The translations under genes were made by a program, and so were the position numbers. A model generated the notes under the pieces. It was not told where the DNA came from, ran no database searches, and saw only the letters and a program-made list of their open reading frames with translations. Of a stretch of 64,000 bases of DNA, positions 9,884 to 62,100 are shown piece by piece; position 1 is the stretch's first letter; every line of letters starts with the position of its first letter. The DNA comes from Octopus sinensis (taxonomy: Eukaryota), in the NCBI RefSeq assembly GCF_006345805.1, contig NW_021833575.1, forward strand, positions 17,615 to 81,614. The letters are read 5' to 3'.

Positions 9884-9989
9884 ACTTTTCCATTTTTTTT
9901 CAGAGTATCAAACTAGTACACCTTGTTCACTGTTACTTCACCTATCTTTGTCTTTTGCTTTTTGCACATTTCAATCATATATATATTAT

Positions 9990-10210
9990 TTTTTATAATT
10001 ATGAATATAATTATAACTAGGGTTCAGCAAAAAATCTGCTTCGCCACATACCGAAGAAAATTTTGTGCTGAACCCTAATTATAATTATATTCATAATTAT
10101 AAAAGATATTGTTTAAGTTTACCGAAAATGGTCCTTTTAACATGCCGAATACTACTTGGTGGAATTATTAATTACTAATTAATTAATTAATTAATTTTAC
10201 CCTTTATTGT
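9990..10210. repeat. Fold-back fragment related to the 546-bp tandem unit
   Basis: ~40-bp inverted arms at 9990-10029 and 10064-10104; aatggtcc...cttggtggaa...taattaattaattttaccc matches the 546-bp unit. Confidence 0.7.
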
Positions 10211-10329
10211 TATTGATAGTATATATATATATTGTATTGTATTGGCATCCTTTCTGTCTCGGGAGACAATGGAGTTGCGCATGAAGTAGTCTAGTCCGGC
10301 TTTTATATTTCATGTCCTGGTACATTTCC

Positions 10330-33024: not shown

Positions 33025-33049
<25 letters not shown>

Positions 33050-33056
<7 letters not shown>

Positions 33057-36000
33057 CAACAATTGAGGGCAAAATTAATTAATTATTAATCAATTTCACC
33101 AAGTGTTCAGTATGCAAAGGGACCATTCAAGGCGAATTCAAATTATTACATTATATAAAAGGGCTTAGTAAAATAAATTACTTTGCCGCATACTGAACTC
33201 ATTAGAAATAGCAGCTAAAAAACTTTTTTAAGGCTATTTCTAATACTTAAAGAAAATCTCTCTCATATATAGTGTTTGCATAATTTAACTCACAAAAGTT
33301 TGGGGGTAATGACATCGAAAAATCAAATGCTAAGGTTATTCGAGAACGTACGTTTCAAGATTAGTCAAAACAACATTTCTATCATCGGCTCGGAAATTCC
33401 TTGGTTTGGATTTGGAAACACTGAAAATAAGAACATACCCTCTCGAAGATCTGCTCCCAACTAACAGTGCCAACAAATTCAAAATAAGCAAGCGAAGAAT
33501 CTCTGTTCTCCCCTTTCCACCAGCGTGGGTTAAAATCATCAAACTCTATGCTTATTTCGGTAAAGTCCGAAGCATTAATCAGAGGGAGATTAATTATAAT
33601 TTCAACAATTGAGGGCAAAATTAATTAATTATTAATCAATTTCACCAAGTGTTCAGTATGCAAAGGGACCATTCAAGGCGAATTCAAATTATTACATTAT
33701 ATAAAAGGGCTTAGTAAAATAAATTACTTTGCCGCATACTGAACTCATTAGAAATAGCAGCTAAAAAACTTTTTTAAGGCTATTTCTAATACTTAAAGAA
33801 AATCTCTCTCATATATAGTGTTTGCATAATTTAACTCACAAAAGTTTGGGGGTAATGACATCGAAAAATCAAATGCTAAGGTTATTCGAGAACGTACGTT
33901 TCAAGATTAGTCAAAACAACATTTCTATCATCGGCTCGGAAATTCCTTGGTTTGGATTTGGAAACACTGAAAATAAGAACATACCCTCTCGAAGATCTGC
34001 TCCCAACTAACAGTGCCAACAAATTCAAAATAAGCAAGCGAAGAATCTCTGTTCTCCCCTTTCCACCAGCGTGGGTTAAACTCATCAAACTCTATGCTTA
34101 TTTCGGTAAAGTCCGAAGCATTAATCAGAGGGAGATTAATTATAATTTCAACAATTGAGGGCAAAATTAATTAATTATTAATCAATTTCACCAAGTGTTC
34201 AGTATGCAAAGGGACCATTCAAGGCGAATTCAAATTATTACATTATATAAAAGGGCTTAGTAAAATAAATTACTTTGCCGCATACTGAACTCATTAGAAA
34301 TAGCAGCTAAAAAACTTTTTTAAGGCTATTTCTAATACTTAAAGAAAATCTCTCTCATATATAGTGTTTGCATAATTTAACTCACAAAAGTTTGGGGGTA
34401 ATGACATCGAAAAATCAAATGCTAAGGTTATTCGAGAACGTACGTTTCAAGATTAGTCAAAACAACATTTCTATCATCGGCTCGGAAATTCCTTGGTTTG
34501 GATTTGGAAACACTGAAAATAAGAACATACCCTCTCGAAGATCTGCTCCCAACTAACAGTGCCAACAAATTCAAAATAAGCAAGCGAAGAATCTCTGTTC
34601 TCCCCTTTCCACCAGCGTGGGTTAAAATCATCAAACTCCATGCTTATTTCGGTAAAGTCCGAAGCATTAATCAGAGGGAGATTAATTATAATTTCAACAA
34701 TTGAGGGCAAAATTAATTAATTATTAATCAATTTCACCAAGTGTTCAGTATGCAAAGGGACCATTCAAGGCGAATTCAAATTATTACATTATATAAAAGG
34801 GCTTAGTAAAATAAATTACTTTGCCGCATACTGAACTCATTAGAAATAGCAGCTAAAAAACTTTTTTAAGGCTATTTCTAATACTTAAAGAAAATCTCTC
34901 TCATATATAGTGTTTGCATAATTTAACTCACAAAAGTTTGGGGGTAATGACATCGAAAAATCAAATGCTAAGGTTATTCGAGAACGTACGTTTCAAGATT
35001 AGTCAAAACAACATTTCTATCATCGGCTCGGAAATTCCTTGGTTGGATTTGGAAACACTGAAAATAAGAACATACCCTCTCGAAGATCTGCTCCCAACTA
35101 ACAGTGCCAACAAATTCAAAATAAGCAAGCGAAGAATCTCTGTTCTCCCCTTTCCACCAGCGTGGGTTAAAATCATCAAACTCTATGCTTATTTCGGTAA
35201 AGTCCGAAGCATTAATCAGAGGGAGATTAATTATAATTTCAACAATTGAGGGCAAAATTAATTAATTATTAATCAATTTCACCAAGTGTTCAGTATGCAA
35301 AGGGACCATTCAAGGCGAATTCAAATTATTACATTATATAAAAGGGCTTAGTAAAATAAATTACTTTGCCGCATACTGAACTCATTAGAAATAGCAGCTA
35401 AAAAACTTTTTTAAGGCTATTTCTAATACTTAAAGAAAATCTCTCTCATATATAGTGTTTGCATAATTTAACTCACAAAAGTTTGGGGGTAATGACATCG
35501 AAAAATCAAATGCTAAGGTTATTCGAGAACGTACGTTTCAAGATTAGTCAAAACAACATTTCTATCATCGGCTCGGAAATTCCTTGGTTTGGATTTGGAA
35601 ACACTGAAAATAAGAACATACCCTCTCGAAGATCTGCTCCCAACTAACAGTGCCAACAAATTCAAAATAAGCAAGCGAAGAATCTCTGTTCTCCCTTCCC
35701 CTTTCCACCAGCGTGGGTTAAAATCATCAAACTCTATGCTTATTTCGGTAAAGTCCGAAGCATTAATCAGAGGGAGATTAATTATAATTTCAACAATTGA
35801 GGGCAAAATTAATTAATTATTAATCAATTTCACCAAGTGTTCAGTATGCAAAGGGACCATTCAAGGCGAATTCAAATTATTACATTATATAAAAGGGCTT
35901 AGTAAAATAAATTACTTTGCCGCATACTGAACTCATTAGAAATAGCAGCTAAAAAACTTTTTTAAGGCTATTTCTAATACTTAAAGAAAATCTCTCTCAT

Positions 36001-36961
36001 ATATAGTGTTTACCGAAATAAGCATAGAGTTTGATGATTTTAACCCACGCTGGTGGAAAGGGGAGAACAGAGATTCTTCGCTTGCTTATTTTGAATTTGT
36101 TGGCACTGTTAGTTGGGAGCAGATCTTCGAGAGGGTATGTTCTTATTTTCAGTGTTTCCAAATCCAAACCAAGGAATTTCCGAGCCGATGATAGAAATGT
36201 TGTTTTGACTAATCTTGAAACGTACGTTCTCGAATAACCTTAGCATTTGATTTTTCGATGTCATTACCCCCAAACTTTTGTGAGTTAAATTATGCAAACA
36301 CTATATATGAGAGAGATTTTCTTTAAGTATTAGAAATAGCCTTAAAAAAGTTTTTTAGCTGCTATTTCTAATGAGTTCAGTATGCGGCAAAGTAATTTAT
36401 TTTACTAAGCCCTTTTATATAATGTAATAATTTGAATTCGCCTTGAATGGTCCCTTTGCATACTGAACACTTGGTGAAATTGATTAATAATTAATTAATT
36501 TTGCCCTCAATTGTTGAAATTATAATTAATCTCCCTCTGATTAATGCTTCGGACTTTACCGAAATAAGCATAGAGTTTGATGATTTTAACCCACGCTGGT
36601 GGAAAGGGGAGAACAGAGATTCTTCGCTTGCTTATTTTGAATTTGTTGGCACTGTTAGTTGGGAGCAGATCTTCGAGAGGGTATGTTCTTATTTTCAGTG
36701 TTTCCAAATCCAAACCAAGGAATTTCCGAGCCGATGATAGAAATGTTGTTTTGACTAATCTTGAAACGTACGTTCTCGAATAACCTTAGCATTTGATTTT
36801 TCGATGTCATTACCCCCAAACTTTTGTGAGTTAAATTATGCAAACACTATATATGAGAGAGATTTTCTTTAAGTATTAGAAATAGCCTTAAAAAAGTTTT
36901 TTAGCTGCTATTTCTAATGAGTTCAGTATGCGGCAAAGTAATTTATTTTACTAAGCCCTTT

Positions 36962-36969
<8 letters not shown>
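33050..36969. mobile_element. Retrozyme-like tandem array, 546-bp unit: ~5.4 forward copies plus ~1.75 inverted copies
   Basis: Near-identical units; orientation switches at 36009-36011; one HHR per unit; (TA)n on both sides. Confidence 0.9.
33341..33392 (-). ncRNA. Hammerhead motif (U4C variant), first of 7 copies
   Basis: cgag-CCGATGA-taga...tctt-GAAA-cgtacg-TT-ctcg. Also at ~33887, 34433, 34979 and 35524 (-), and 36181 and 36727 (+). Confidence 0.8.
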
Positions 36970-37009
<40 letters not shown>

Positions 37010-37066
37010 TTAGTGAATGGAAGAAATGGAGTTGAACGAAGATTGTACAGAATTCCTTTTATTACA

Positions 37067-37146
37067 TTCTACACATGTTTCAAAGGCCACAATTTTCCAA
37101 ATTCTGATTAAATAAGGATACCATATTGCAGCTTTCTCTTCAGGAA
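37067..37146 (-). ncRNA. Hammerhead ribozyme motif in the PLE 3' terminal repeat
   Basis: ttc-CTGAAGA-gaaagctgcaat...attgtggccttt-GAAA-catgtg-TA-gaa. Confidence 0.8.
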
Positions 37147-37743
37147 AAAACAGGAATTCCGTTGACAGAACAAAACAAAACAGAGGCGTAGCAAAGCAAT
37201 TCGAACGAGGACGCTCCTTAACAGCCCATGGTTAAACTGTTTATCAATGTACGTTGAAATCGGGGGGTTGGTGCGTTGAAAATATTTACAGGTCAGGCGG
37301 CGGTCAAAACTAGTAGGTGAGAACAAGGGGTGTGGAGGTGTTCTGTGTGACCAAAACTAATGTTCTGAATACTTTAAGAATACAGGGTGTATTTTTGGGG
37401 GCGAGACAAAAACTACCTAAAAGCATGTATGTGTATACTGGCCTATGTGTGCGCGGCCGTATGTTGGCGAGGGGCGCTACATAATGATCACTGCTGAAAA
37501 AACCTGTCAGGCGGCTGAAAAAAATTTTTGTGTTCGTGTGTTCGTCTAGGCCTGCTTGTCAAAAATTAACATCGTCAAAGAATCCTAAGGGTATATATAA
37601 TTCCAGCGTTTGCTTCCAAAAAAAACCACCAATCGCCTAATGGGAGTAATTTCCCCTTGCAAGAGTTATTCATAGATTTTTTAAAAAGCTTTTTCAAAAA
37701 TTATTTCCAAAGATTATTTTCATTTTAGTAGGGTAACAAGGTG

Positions 37744-39521
37744 TTAATTGGGATTAGCTTCTGATATTAATACTGCGTTACTGTTACTATATTGACTGTG
37801 AGAACTGCGGCCGCTTACTACATTATATTCCTCATTATCACTATTAATTAACGGACTAACCCCTGTGTATTCCCTATCACTGAGAACGCTGTAATTGCTA
37901 GTATCCGTGGACCTGCTATTGCCGGAAACGATGCTAAAGTTGCTATTAGGACTCTCTACATTAATGACCCGAACTGCGCTCATCTCCCTATTACCATTAC
38001 TAACGTTATTGACATCACCATTTCTTCTATCGCTAATCCTATTATTTAATCCCTGGTTGGTACTGAGATTATCAGTCACTGTACTGGCTCTTTTATCATT
38101 ATTACTACTATTATTATTCCTACTGCGCGTTAAACTGGGATCGGACGGAGCTGCGCCTCCGGACAAAGGTGGTAGGGTCTTAATAAGCAGCCTATTATTA
38201 TGGGAGGCGATTATCTGGGAAAGGTTTTTTGTGTTGGAGAAAGCTATCCTAACTTTATGTGAATTAACCGTGGTGTAATATTTGGAATTTCTGGGGAAGT
38301 TACTGGCAATGGCTTGTCGAAACAGGAGGGGAAGGTTAGTTCTAATCTGCTTACCAAAGGGAATTACAAACCAGATATGTTTATTCCTATTTTTGTGATG
38401 GGTCTGGAAGCCAGCTCTGACATTAGGGTGGGTGATTCTAGGATGAATAAAAGGTTTTGGTTTAGTATGACCTCCCTCGGACCGAAAATTATCTATGTTC
38501 CCTAAATTAAATCCGGAAGTACCTGCTCCAACACTCCCCCCGCTCCCATCACTACTTAAATTATTTATGTTATTATAGACGGCCCTATCCTGATGACCGA
38601 ATGGTGGCATCGGAAGGGCTGGATCAATATATACTACCTTCTGCCTATAACCGGCTTTGGATAGTGCGGCGTTATAAAATTCCGCTTTCTGCATAAAAAT
38701 GTCGACACTAGCGGACAAGTTAGACAATCTTAGAGAGATGTTTTTAACCAAATTGTCTGTTACAGTTTTGGCATGATTGGAGAAGACACTGACATACTTT
38801 AAATTAGTGGAAGGCTTATGGTAAGGGAAGTATGAATCGCTATGGAGGTTTAGTGTGACGTCTAGGAAATTAGCCTTGGTGAATTCATTATCAAAAACTA
38901 TATTCATGCCCATTCTATTAAAGAACCTAGCTAACCTATTTTTAGTTTTCTGTACGATTCTGTTCGTGGTGTTTTGCAGGTAAAACAGACAATCGTCACG
39001 ATACAGGCCGCCCGCGATATCCGGGAATTGGTCGGATAATTCGTAGGGAATATAGATTCCGACCAAATCGGTTATCTGCGCACTATCCGAACTACCCATA
39101 GGCACATCGAATTCATTGGGAGTATCTTTACGAATCCACAACTTATTTTCAAACTTTATAAATGATTTTCTGGCAACTAAAATAATATCAATTTCTTCTC
39201 TAGTGAGGCCTGCCTTGTTGTGAGCATGCCACAGGGTCTTATTTAGTACACTAGGGTTAATCGAGGGGTAGAAGCTGGCGATATCAAACTGAATGAACCT
39301 AGTACGGTTCTTATTGGGGATGGAAGAGAACCACTTCACTACCTGCGAGAGGTAGCCCAGAGGCTAAGCTTCAGCTTATTTACTAAACTAGGGATATATT
39401 TATCTAAAATATACTTACTGATGGTCCCGATATCGGAACTAGCAGGGCATATGAGTCTTAACGCTGGGTTGGTGTAGAAATTCGGTTTGTGGTCCTTCAC
39501 TATGAATCTAGGTTTACTCGG
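37744..39521 (-). pseudogene. PLE reverse transcriptase (one frameshift near 39340), RT core plus thumb and S/N-rich tail
   Basis: KDHKPNF..PALRLICPA; FDIASFYPSI; VPMGSSDSAQITDLVG; GLYRDD; NFLDVTL; YHKP..SNH; WFVIPF..IIASHN. Confidence 0.92.
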
Positions 39522-39751
39522 AAAAGAGATCAAGAAGAATTATAGAACAACTAATTGGAGCACATTGAGGAAAGTAATCTTGGAGATTAAGGAAATAATG
39601 TTTAAATACGGAATTCAAATGAGAACGCAGCCGCTTAGCCCTAAACAACATTGATAAACAGTTTAACCATGGGCTCTTAAGGAGCGTCCTCGTTCGAATT
39701 GCTTTGCTACGCCTCTGTTTTGTTTTGTTCTGTCAACGGAATTCCTGTTTT

Positions 39752-39831
39752 TTCCTGAAGAGAAAGCTGCAATATGGTATCCTTATTTAATCAGAATTTG
39801 GAAAATTGTGGCCTTTGAAACATGTGTAGAA
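39752..39831 (+). ncRNA. Hammerhead ribozyme motif in the inverted PLE repeat
   Basis: Mirror copy of 37067-37146. Confidence 0.8.
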
Positions 39832-40072
39832 TGTAATAAAAGGAATTCTGTACAATCTTCGTTCAACTCCATTTCTTCCATTCACTAATAATATTAAACT
39901 TCAATTATCCGCACCAACGCACGGTTGCAACACCAAATGGTCTTATCGCCAACCGTGCTTTTTTCTGCTGTGATTTTTGCTACCCAGGTATCGGTTAAAC
40001 TTTTGAATAATCTGTAACAAGAAAATTCATCTTTCTATTTCAACAAACATATATATATATATATATATATAA

Positions 40073-47630: not shown

Positions 47631-47660
<30 letters not shown>

Positions 47661-47663
<3 letters not shown>

Positions 47664-50410
47664 TATAATTAAGGGCTAAAGAGGGTTATTCTAAAGCCAA
47701 ATACACTGTTTTATCCACTTATAATCCGCTTGTTACAGGAAAATTGAAACTGAAAACGGGCAACTAACCTTTAGAAAATTTAAATTTCGTTATCTCTATA
47801 TTGAATCAATTTCGGACTTAATCTTATAAAAAAAGATATATTCCTTCTTCAGTAGAACTTTCGATGGGATATAAATAAAATACTCACGTATGATCATGGA
47901 AAAAGCACAAGCTAAAAACATAACTACACTTGAGTACATCACTTATATCTAAAAATAAAAATTCTTTGGTCAGCCTCAGAAAACAACGTCCAGACCTTTC
48001 GCCGCTACAAATTGTAATGGTTACCAGTCCTCCTGTAGTAAGCATCGAGTTTACTACTAAGCAATATAGGATGAAGTCCCTTACTCTACAGCAAAGGAAT
48101 TCATCAGGAAGCGTGGGCAGTATATTTAAAAAAACCGTTACGGTTGCAATATACATCATATAATTAAGGGCTAAAGAGGGTTATTCTAAAGCCAAATACA
48201 CTGTTTTATCCACTTATAATCCGCTTGTTACAGGAAAATTGAAACTGAAAACGGGCAACTAACCTTTAGAAAATTTAAATTTCGTTATCTCTATATTGAA
48301 TCAATTTCGGACTTAATCTTATAAAAAAAGATATATTCCTTCTTCAGTAGAACTTTCGATGGGATATAAATAAAATACTCACGTATGATCATGGAAAAAG
48401 CACAAGCTAAAAACATAACTACACTTGAGTACATCACTTATATCTAAAAATAAAAATTCTTTGGTCAGCCTCAGAAAACAACGTCCAGACCTTTCGCCGC
48501 TACAAATTGTAATGGTTACCAGTCCTCCTGTAGTAAGCATCGAGTTTACTACTAAGCAATATAGGATGAAGTCCCTTACTCTACAGCAAAGGAATTCATC
48601 AGGAAGCGTGGGCAGTATATTTAAAAAAACCGTTACGGTTGCAATATACATCATATAATTAAGGGCTAAAGAGGGTTATTCTAAAGCCAAATACACTGTT
48701 TTATCCACTTATAATCCGCTTGTTACAGGAAAATTGAAACTGAAAACGGGCAACTAACCTTTAGAAAATTAAATTTCGTTATCTCTATATTGAATCAATT
48801 TCGGACTTAATCTTATAAAAAAAGATATATTCCTTCTTCAGTAGAACTTTCGATGGGATATAAATAAAATACTCACGTATGATCATGGAAAAAGCACAAG
48901 CTAAAAACATAACTACACTTGAGTACATCACTTATATCTAAAAATAAAAATTCTTTGGTCAGCCTCAGAAAACAACGTCCAGACCTTTCGCCGCTACAAA
49001 TTGTAATGGTTACCAGTCCTCCTGTAGTAAGCATCGAGTTTACTACTAAGCAATATAGGATGAAGTCCCTTACTCTACAGCAAAGGAATTCATCAGGAAG
49101 CGTGGGCAGTATATTTAAAAAACCGTTACGGTTGCAATATACATCATATAATTAAGGGCTAAAGAGGGTTATTCTAAAGCCAAATACACTGTTTTATCCA
49201 CTTATAATCCGCTTGTTACAGGAAAATTGAAACTGAAAACGGGCAACTAACCTTTAGAAAATTTAAATTTCGTTATCTCTATATTGAATCAATTTCGGAC
49301 TTAATCTTATAAAAAAAGATATATTCCATCTTCAGTAGAACTTTCGATGGGATATAATAAAATAAATACTCACGTATGATCATGGAAAAAGCACAAGCTA
49401 AAAACATAACTACACTTGAGTACATCACTTATATCTAAAAATAAAAATTCTTTGGTCAGCCTCAGAAAACAACGTCCAGACCTTTCGCCGCGCTACAAAT
49501 TGTAATGGTTACCAGTCCTCCTGTAGTAAGCATCGAGTTTACTACTAAGCATATAGGATGAAGTCCCTTACTCTACAGCAAAGGAATTCATCAGGAAGCG
49601 TGGCAGTATATTTAAAAAAACCGTTACGGTTGCAATATACATCATATAATTAAGGGCTAAAGAGGGTTATTCTAAAGCCAAATACACTGTTTTATCCACT
49701 TATAATCCGCTTGTTACAGGAAAATTGAAACTGAAAACGGGCAACTACCTTTAGAAAATTTAAATTTCGTTATCTCTATATTGAATCAATTTCGGACTTA
49801 ATCTTATAAAAAAAGATATATTCCTTCTTCAGTAGAACTTTCGATGGGATATAAATAAAATACTCACGTATGATCATGGCAAAAGCACAAGCTAAAAACA
49901 TAACTACACTTGAGTACATCACTTATATCTAAAAATAAAAATCTTTTTGGTCAGCCTCAGAAAACACAAACGTCCAGACCTTTCGCGCCGCTAACAAATG
50001 TAATGGTTACCAGTCCTCCTGTAGTAAGCATCGAGTTTACTACTAAGCAATATAGGATGAAGTCCCTTACTCTCTACAGCAAAGGAATTCATCAGGAAGC
50101 GTGGGCAGTATATTTAAAAAAACCGTTACGGTTGCAATATACATCATATAATTAAGGGCTAAAGAGGGTTATTCTAAAGCCAAATACACTGTTTTATCCA
50201 CTTATAATCCGCTTGTTACAGGAAAATTGAAACTGAAAACGGGCAACTAACCTTTAAAAATTTAAATTTCGTTATCTCTATATTGAATCAATTCGGACTT
50301 AATCTTATAAAAAAAGATATATTCCTTCTTCAGTAGAACTTTCGATGGGATATAATAAAATACTCACGTATGATCATGGAAAAAGCACAAGCTAAAAACA
50401 TAACTACATA
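47661..50410. mobile_element. Retrozyme-like tandem array, 495-bp unit, ~5.5 copies
   Basis: Unit starts at ~47662, 48157, 48652, 49145, 49643 and 50145; one HHR per unit; (TA)n on both sides. Confidence 0.9.
47795..47856 (-). ncRNA. Hammerhead ribozyme motif, first of 6 copies
   Basis: tcta-CTGAAGA-a-gga...tcc-GAAA-ttga t tcaa-TA-taga; recurs every ~495 bp. Confidence 0.85.
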
Positions 50411-52413: not shown

Positions 52414-53419
52414 ATATATAAATTATATAAATAAATTTCTTTAACCATATACGGTTACAAATTCTGTTTGTGTGGAGACTTTTATTAGTAGGAGAAATAG
52501 TGATCAATTTGGCTGCTATTTCTAATATTTTCGGTATGTGGTTTTGAGCAACTTGTTGCAATTAACCCTTTATTATAATTAATATAATTCTTACCAAATA
52601 TGGTCTTTTCCATACCGATAAATCTACTAGGTGAAATTTATTAATTTTATTAAATTAATCATATTTCACCATTTTTTGTATATATATATATAATTTAGAA
52701 CAACCACCTTTTATCAATTTAAAATGAACAATTAAATTACACCATCTAGAAAATTACATAAAATAGAAATATAAAAATAAAATAACAATAATATACCCCT
52801 GATTAAGTAAATTGCAAAATAATAATAAAAACGTATATATTTGGTAGAATAACACATATATATATACAATATACATCTATACATGAATATGCATATATTT
52901 GACAACCACATCACTTATTGGTTTTTATGAATTTGTTGAGTTTCCTGTTCATCCTGATGATGGGGTCATTGCCGAAATGCACTTTAACTCGTAATCGAAC
53001 CGCGGCAATGAACTCCCGAAATGGCCATAGCTGTGTTTGACTAGATTTTGTGGAAACCTTTTTAGTCCTGACTCCAACCTACCTTGGTTTTTATGAAATG
53101 AACTTTTTTGATGTACTCTTTTGTTTGAGAGGAGTAAGAAAATTTTTTCAATCGATTGATATTTTATTTTATTTAGATTTTTAGTAGTATGACACATTTT
53201 AGAATTTTTAGTCGATTGTATATACCTTCTTTTAGGCCGTTCTATACATCTGTATTTTTATTTGCATATATATATTTTACCTTCTGTATTATTTATATAT
53301 GTATACTTTATATACTTAAGAGCCATGGTAATATTTATATATGATCAAATGTTTGGAAGCATGGTGTTATATATAAAGTCGTTGACTCGCATTTGATGTT
53401 TGTTCTATGATCAACGTTA

Positions 53420-60867: not shown

Positions 60868-61310
60868 AATATATATATATGTATATGTATGCATATATAT
60901 ATATTGAACCTTGTATCGTGAATTTTTGATATGTTAGTAGACATTATTATAGTATGTATGATATGTTGAAGATTATCGTTAAAGCAATAATATTGTTGTT
61001 ACTGATAAACATAGTAGTGTATATACGTTCTAATGTATTTACGTAAGTATACGACGCATGGTATATCCAATGTAATATATTGTTCAATGGTGTTCATGAA
61101 TGTATTTTGCGCATGTGAATAGTATGTACGCTTTTCTTGTGTATGTATATGTATGTATATATGTATTTTTTATATGTATATATATGTGTGTGTGTGTGGT
61201 GTGTGTAGTTTTGGATATTTGTTTATTGTTTTATTTTGTATATATTAAGTAATACGTGCAGCATGTTTAGTATATTATATTATTATTATATTTTTAAAGT
61301 TAATTATAAA

Positions 61311-61442
61311 TTCTGACGAGGCCTATGGTTCTTTTAACATAAAAGTATTATATTTTTTAAATGCCTACAACCCTAATATGTTGACATCTATAGGCAATGA
61401 AAATTAGATTCACTTTTGACCATAGGCTGAAACAGCTGTAAG
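61311..61442 (+). ncRNA. Hammerhead ribozyme motif with long stem II and a large loop
   Basis: CTGACGA-ggcctatggtt...gaccataggct-GAAA-cagctg-TA; stem I is weak. Confidence 0.7.
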
Positions 61443-62013
61443 AAGTAGTTCATGGATTTCAATAATTCATAATATGACTTTTAAAATCTGTATTTGTATT
61501 ATTATATTATCTATTGATTTATAAAATATTTTGTATACTTTTGATGTTCTCATTTTGTTAAATGAATAAATAATCCAACATTATAATATCCGTAAGTTGA
61601 TGAACAAACTAAATTTGTTTCTCCATTTTCTTAATTGTATTATAAATTTACGGTAAAAATATTTCTTTACCTTCACCCGTTTAATACAATAAATGAATTA
61701 ATTGCATTGCAATTAAAAACATTTATGTTTTAAGAATTTTGGTACTTTACCAACAGTATATTGGATAATTGATATCCCATAGTGGGTTACACTCATAACC
61801 CCTATCTTACTTTGTACTATATATATATATATCTATATATATATATCTATATATATATATATATAATATATATATATATAAGTTCAGTAAAATTTAGATT
61901 CACTTGAATATGGTACTTAAGTTAAGGGCACCAGAATTTAGTATGGTATTATTCATATAATTCAAAATAGGGTGATTATAATCGAAATAAGCAACAAGGA
62001 TATCAAGATGTAA

Positions 62014-62100
62014 TGCAGTACGATCGTTTCATGCGACTCCATTTAATTGGACAATACAAATATTACATCAATTTAAAATATAGAGCAATCTTCAGCTGCA
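62014..62100 (-). ncRNA. Hammerhead ribozyme motif
   Basis: tgcag-CTGAAGA-ttgc...gcat-GAAA-cgatcg-TA-ctgca. Confidence 0.85.

Follow-up and report, generated by a model that had tools for sequence, protein, structure and literature searches.

The hexamer ATGGTC, which recurs in hammerhead-bearing repeats of the Octopus sinensis genome (2.7 Gb), is how a single lineage spells a small hairpin within a wider predicted fold, and comparison among families suggests that the hexamer itself is dispensable. The wider fold is a module of about 150 nt. Our favoured reading, held with some reserve, is that the module would position a borrowed Penelope-type reverse transcriptase (RT) at two start sites, with ATGGTC as the form that its P3 hairpin takes in one lineage.

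These repeats were studied in a 64,000-nt stretch of contig NW_021833575.1 (hereafter the window), which is rich in (TA)n tracts holding head-to-head insertions of hammerhead-bearing repeats (Table 1). A first-pass annotation had taken a stem enclosing ATGGTC, shared by a coding Penelope-type element (PLE) and by non-coding repeats, for a cis-acting RNA element, possibly the RT recognition signal of the non-coding units. A cis-acting element stands in the form of a conserved, covarying predicted structure at the copy ends of non-coding hammerhead families. The hexamer as its signal is not supported, because the letters vary while the fold stays, and the specific idea that non-coding units are licensed by six fixed letters is best abandoned.

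Table 1. Positions of the retrozyme and PLE features in the window
Feature	Position	Strand	Detail
Head-to-head fragment, third related retrozyme family (10-kb)	9987..10218	.	two arms
546-bp retrozyme array	33049..36011	-	~5.4 units; ends at long end (33049)
Modules of the 546-bp array	33054-33200, 33600-33746, 34146-34292, 34692-34838, 35237-35383, 35788-35934	-
Inverted arm of 546-bp array	36009..36972	+	~1.8 units; module 36373-36519
Main PLE arm	37004..39514	-	5'-truncated RT ORF (37744-39363 open), 3' UTR
Inverted ORF piece between PLE arms	39508..39655	+	148 nt
Inverted pLTR arm of PLE	39648..40049	+	type I minimal hammerhead (core 39755), tail, 'long' end at (TA)n
PLE outer tail stem	39919..39958	+	inner hairpin ACC (39932-34)-loop-GGT; ATGGTC 39937-39942
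Second short word, CTACCCAGGT	39980..39989	+	opens long stem
495-bp hammerhead array	47654..50408	-	module 48056-48206 and four more copies
5'-truncated copy, related retrozyme family (52-kb)	52434..52684	+	module 52527-52684, long end

A predicted module in the non-coding retrozymes

All four sites at which the hexamer had been reported exist, and three fold as described: the PLE site has its 9-bp stem (z -2.5), the 546-bp unit has an 11-bp stem at 33105-33198 (-) and in six sister copies of the array (z -3.2 for the copy folded, 36370-36480), and the site at 52531-52618 (+) has an 8-bp stem (z -2.3). Near 10128 the hexamer and 3' arm are present while the 5' arm is missing from the same strand (z +0.9), because this copy is inverted and truncated; other copies of its family carry the whole stem. 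The compensatory swap between A-U and G-C that separates the 546-bp unit from the 52.5-kb copy was likewise confirmed. At all four sites the hexamer forms the 3' half of a short RCC-loop-GGT hairpin, behind which come a pyrimidine linker and then the closing stem, and it lies between two fixed insertion ends; the first-pass annotation had overlooked both the hairpin and this placement.

The supposed enrichment and independence of the sites did not hold up. The window contains 22 copies of ATGGTC (10 of them in the hammerhead and PLE elements under study) against 33 +/- 6 expected, and in unselected DNA totalling 400 kb it occurs in 2 of 255 TA-flanking zones, against 4.0 in control zones. A single five-seed profile recovers all three non-coding sites; they count once, because they are members of one homologous retrozyme superfamily. 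Nor is the hexamer fixed, since other letters stand in its place in related PLE families and in non-coding families with the same fold.

The three non-coding families with ATGGTC align at 65-80% across their 3' domain and keep the hexamer in 102 of 116 distinct full-length superfamily copies. They consist of tandem units of ~500-580 bp, each with a hammerhead core (degenerate in the 52-kb family). Type I hammerheads were read in the tandem units of the 546-bp (CCGAUGA), 495-bp (CUGAAGA) and 10-kb (CUGA.GA) families; these calls rest on motif reading, because Rfam has no family that matched the motif or the hammerheads and reported nothing at E<=5 in 36009-40050. In the inverted arm of the 546-bp array the hammerhead core lies at 36185, and the arm stops at the short end inside its second module. 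The plus-strand arm of the 10-kb fragment carries ATGGTC (10128) and the long end, and the minus-strand arm the 5' half of the module and the short end.

The 546-bp retrozyme is dispersed and recently mobile, with 274 matches, of which the 150 listed were 99-100% identical and spread over many contigs; close variants were also abundant in contigs of sequencing runs, and no RNA run was among those listed. Two patterns were searched genome-wide for new families; that for the arrangement of the superfamily gave 8,047 matches against 157 for the control and the other 215 against 5, totals that count copies and not independent origins; among the matches listed, 99 of 100 belonged to the known superfamily and 95 of 100 to PLE family A1. 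Units of the 52-kb family are ~500 bp long, and its other copies (L063, L085) have the degenerate core UUGACAA. With more than 2,000 candidate copies despite this core, the family may spread without cleavage.

From 5' to 3' the predicted module comprises a closing stem P1, a hairpin P2 followed by CC(C)T, an AU-rich loop, the hairpin P3 (RCC-loop-GGT, 3-4 bp, or variants), a pyrimidine linker, P1', and the word ACYWGGT, which opens a further hairpin, H4, again followed by CC(C)T. In 13 copies of the ATGGTC superfamily (one row truncated, three out of register in P2 and P3), 4 of 21 pairs contained 12 cells altered on both sides, a count reached in 0 of 500 shuffles; these changes fall in P1 and P2. 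Among nine family representatives, 10 of 25 pairs changed on both sides (0/500 shuffles); P1 and P3 are misregistered there for the 495-bp unit and for L019, and two of the ten are P3 changes due to a one-column slip. Both counts come from few lineages that are related to one another, and the structure was read from the same sequences. RNAalifold on a MAFFT alignment was set aside as a test of the fold; it missed P1 because of misregister.

When a covariance model was trained on nothing but the ATGGTC families, its hits included the 495-bp array of the window (E 5e-4 to 2e-2) and two unrelated-looking fragments, which represent two more families, and a wider model returned further ones. At least five further non-coding families, the 495-bp array included, carry the module with letters such as ACGGTT, GAGGTT and CGGATT. 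In the 495-bp array, which stops at the short end (47654), ACC-GTAAC-GGT(T) replaces ATGGTC and the order of parts is unchanged. P3 reads ACCT-ATG-AGGT in L021, ATC-TTCG-GAT in the L019/L493 family and CTC..GAG in L424, and it is an 8-bp hairpin of different sequence in the L134/L477 family. Six whole units compared with one another had at most short stretches in common outside the module. The same fold with other P3 letters, and so little shared sequence around it, means that the structure is conserved and the hexamer is not.

A structural descriptor run across the loci collected from this genome returned only module families. The main false positive of looser descriptors was an abundant SINE-like repeat (window 9381 and many other loci) that carries ACCACATGGTT. 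Three features picked out by eye were also dropped: Pol III A/B boxes (the B box is absent), a conserved uORF (its frame length is not conserved) and a splice donor (lost in family D).

Two copy ends behind hairpins

Every family has two 3' ends at (TA)n, a short and a long one, and head-to-head insertions often have one end type per arm. In the module families the short end falls inside the AU-rich loop, mostly 8-14 nt behind P2 and its CC(C)T; for the long end, the usual distance behind H4 and its CC(C)T is 7-16 nt. All 18 TA-ended short arms of the 546-bp group stop in the AU-rich loop, 15 of them at one site. The loci mapped were chosen with queries that favour the long end, and duplicates were partly removed. 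Because the ends sit in TA-like sequence, each junction is uncertain by ~5 nt, and the positions could partly reflect microhomology. By analogy, two ends behind hairpin plus CC(C)T in (TA)n are the signature of a Penelope 'tail'.

Module families whose P3 is spelled differently have these two ends as well. The long-loop family has its short end 27-37 nt behind P2, a distance that would fit the P2 spacing only if the inserted piece folds back. Measured instead from P3, the ends of all 10 long-loop arms examined fall 7-19 nt ahead of RCC. This family does not separate P2 from P3, because its extra sequence can fold into a hairpin. Compared with P3, the twin hairpin plus CC(C)T is the better candidate ruler.

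There is at least one explanation that needs no specific signal. The fold might serve RNA stability, circularisation or hammerhead folding, with the ends arising wherever unpaired, AU-rich RNA anneals to the nicked (TA)n primer. All ends do lie in TA-like sequence, and structured circular retrozyme RNAs accumulate in other animals, according to the available text of one account (PMC7229834). However, the RNAs are AU-rich throughout, yet six families show two clusters of ends, similarly spaced behind CC(C)T, and the retrozyme family with a degenerate hammerhead core retains the module and both ends. We regard this explanation as improbable.

Coding Penelope-type elements and their tails

The coding element of the window reads as a Hydra-clade PLE of a derived branch (family A1). 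Its main arm has a hammerhead core at 37143, a short end at 37004 and an internal deletion of ~410 nt that removed most of the GIY-YIG region; the inverted ORF piece beside it resembles a twin-priming inversion. An intact sister copy encodes 895 aa with DKT and RWK-like motifs in the RT plus a GIY-YIG at the C-terminus, as described for the clade; Pfam returned no RT or GIY-YIG match. Family A has a sense hammerhead and inserts into (TA)n, and among 20 copies selected by their ORF we found 10 long ends, 9 short ends and 1 unplaced. In tandem copies the long stem opened by CTACCCAGGT closes just before the start codon.

The tail of family A has a conserved RCC-NN-ATGGTY hairpin. Among nine subfamily representatives the inner three pairs and the outer six were intact in 9/9, whereas free variation was seen in the 5' spacer and in the two letters that open the loop. 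The hexamer was ATGGTC in six, ATGGTT in two and ACGGTC in one (ATGGTY in 8/9). No pair of the stem changed on both sides in these nine.

This conservation bears on a second explanation, in which the RCC-loop-(AU)GGU hairpin and a downstream ACY(Y)WGGT word are a determinant common to the window's PLE branch and the retrozymes, by descent or convergence, and the RT of that branch mobilises the retrozymes. The order of hairpin, linker, 3' arm and ACYYWGGT stem is identical in PLE and retrozymes; the loop AT is kept in both lineages. Shuffled PLE tails contained RCC plus ATGGTY in 1.05% of cases and together with a closing stem in 0.035%, although this was a post hoc test. At the place of the hairpin, CC(T)..(A)GG is retained with other loops in families B, C and D; a stem of family E contains ACC-AAAC-GGT. 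In age, subfamily A2 (99.3-100% to the nearest neighbour) matches the 546-bp unit.

Against this, neither HMM profiles nor covariance models gave a PLE-retrozyme cross-match in either direction, and the PLE stem lacks two-sided changes. Copies of families C, E, F and G are equally young, so that age does not single out a helper. The short end lies ~43 nt from the hairpin and outside the stem in the PLE, versus 7-18 nt and inside the stem in the retrozymes; coding and non-coding elements thus do not agree in the structure found at a given place with respect to the start site. Loose matches to RCC..GGY turn up in 38% of PLE-tail shuffles, and one or another of four shared, GC-containing hexamers appears in 11.8% of shuffles, compared with 5 of 12 real tails. 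Finally, module families with other P3 letters share the ends. A common determinant seems to us rather unlikely on these grounds. The PLE hairpin would be a distant remnant or chance; that it is related at all to the retrozyme module is a slightly better prospect, though still less likely than not. The earlier idea that the window's PLE shares the signal and licenses the non-coding units was not borne out, as models from either side miss the other.

The search for a coding parent was extended to 11 Hydra families, and no homology of the retrozymes to the pLTR of a coding PLE was found among these Hydra families. At 24 coding-PLE loci of families A-K the module model matched no tail, the best true tail scoring E 0.49 (family F). 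Family A has no hairpin plus CC(C)T before either end. Family K does have one before its short end (15 arms, 10-16 nt), and for its long end 0 of 20 downstream stretches reached the hairpin; as a detectable parent of the retrozymes it was rejected (profile E >= 4.8, model E 4.9).

The closest relatives of family A have lost ATGGTC, and canonical Hydra tails do not contain it. Its role as a general Hydra signal was rejected: ATGGTY occurred in 2 and RCC..ATGGT in 0 of 44 metagenome tails, a subset of 77 loci chosen because usable sequence followed a hammerhead-like core, some of them possibly false picks. Instead, 34 of the 44, together with our family G, have canonical Hydra-like twin hairpins, GCTC..GAGCACT (YGAGYAC), and in family G each end lies 6-7 nt before a twin hairpin. 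Such hairpins were seen between hammerhead and start codon at L251-L327, L358-L387 and L392, and family H has a CCTC..GAGG variant.

A midpoint-rooted tree of 42 rows (16 of our own, 22 of 38 eligible metagenome proteins and 4 database proteins), built without published Hydra references or an outgroup, placed A-D on one branch (100/100) inside a derived group with E, F, J and K. The CxCX5C linker before the endonuclease is absent in A and C and present in E, F, H, I, J and K. Linker-less loci include L178:790-3474 (P0001) and L328. The proposed tie between linker and microsatellite targeting is open to question, because A and C lack the linker, insert into (TA)n and are very young.

Several further features of coding families were observed. 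In families A-D and K (L178:700-790, L194, L328, L411) there is a long stem whose closing base pairs lie a short way ahead of the start codon, by a few bases, and which possibly controls translation; in A-D it encloses the long end. Six K-lineage ORFs (L533, L534, L536, L538, L540, L547) reach (TA)n at one shared site 310-400 nt past the stop codon, with no hammerhead seen upstream of it; the site is either a third end or an internal TA tract. The window also holds fragments of other families. At 250-810 lies a head-to-head pLTR fragment of Hydra family E, of which L333 and L339 are coding copies; its hammerhead is at 708, its tail has ACC-AAAC-GGT in a stem, and a GGTG..CACC hairpin precedes the long end. 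A hammerhead-bearing fragment related to family K (61220-61820) ends 8 nt behind a hairpin plus CTTA, and a pLTR fragment at 61880-62100 (-) resembles Hydra family F (hammerhead core 62095).

Proposed mechanism and comparison with known systems

In vitro, the endonuclease of the PLE Poseidon PAc nicks AT-rich DNA and its RT starts internally at two sites that bound the tail, as reported in the sections available of Frangieh et al. 2024 (PMC11167929). Retrozymes have been proposed as PLE dependants (Li, Clavereau and Pollet 2026, 10.64898/2026.07.22.740005; PMC7229834; PMC4209133, each in its available text). For the retrozymes studied here, a PLE endonuclease would nick (TA)n, and the helper RT, which we infer docks on the module, would prime on the unpaired AU-rich stretch behind either hairpin, offered to the (TA)n primer. 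One start per site would give head-to-head arms, one with a long and one with a short end. The helper RT probably belongs to the derived Hydra branch, though it need not come from the window's family.

A broader scenario can be drawn from the parts that occur separately in coding families, namely RCC-loop-GGU plus ACYYWGGT in A-E and hairpin plus CCCTA in K. The derived, cephalopod-rich Hydra branch might have swapped the canonical twin start hairpins for a new RNA code that the retrozyme module preserves whole, a portable docking and start signal for a telomerase-related RT; we consider this speculative and on balance unlikely.

PLE RTs are the closest relatives of telomerase, and one question is how they choose their RNA and two internal start sites. 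Another is whether PLEs copy retrozymes, as opposed to retrozymes merely deriving from PLEs. A compact covarying module with mapped ends in many families provides exact mutations for testing both questions.

In LINE-SINE pairs such as eel UnaL2 and UnaSINE1, the non-autonomous partner keeps a small RNA stem-loop near the RT start; the tails of the partners are alignable, and the signal lies at the RNA 3' end. Our retrozymes differ from such pairs: no alignable coding partner was found for them, and their putative starts lie inside the RNA.

Retrozymes, Hydra PLEs and tails are already known. In the openly accessible literature we found neither this module described nor any signal for starts in retrozymes. 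The metazoan non-LTR retrozymes on record (Cervera and de la Pena 2020, PMC7229834; 10.64898/2026.07.22.740005) resemble those of the window in their non-coding tandem units with one type I hammerhead each, their dispersed arrays and their proposed PLE dependence. As far as the available portions of these accounts go, our units differ in their length of 495-580 bp and their minimal or variant cores, and no end-positioning RNA module is described there.

Family A shares with the Hydra clade (Craig et al. 2021, PMC8557442) the C-terminal GIY-YIG, the DKT motif, the sense hammerhead in the 3' UTR, the (TA)n target and the tandem and inverted insertions. Unlike that clade it is without the CxCX5C linker, and it is also without the twin GCTC..GAGCACT hairpins typical of the canonical Hydra-like tails analysed here.

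Poseidon PAc, in the part of its account available (PMC11167929), offers the closest parallel for the ends: as here, two fixed 3' ends bound an optional tail downstream of the hammerhead, and the target is AT-rich. Its tail is 30-40 nt long, compared with ~95-110 nt in our retrozymes and 155 nt in family A, and its start is at an AC-rich stem-loop, whereas the ends mapped here, read from sequence, lie in AU-rich stretches behind hairpins.
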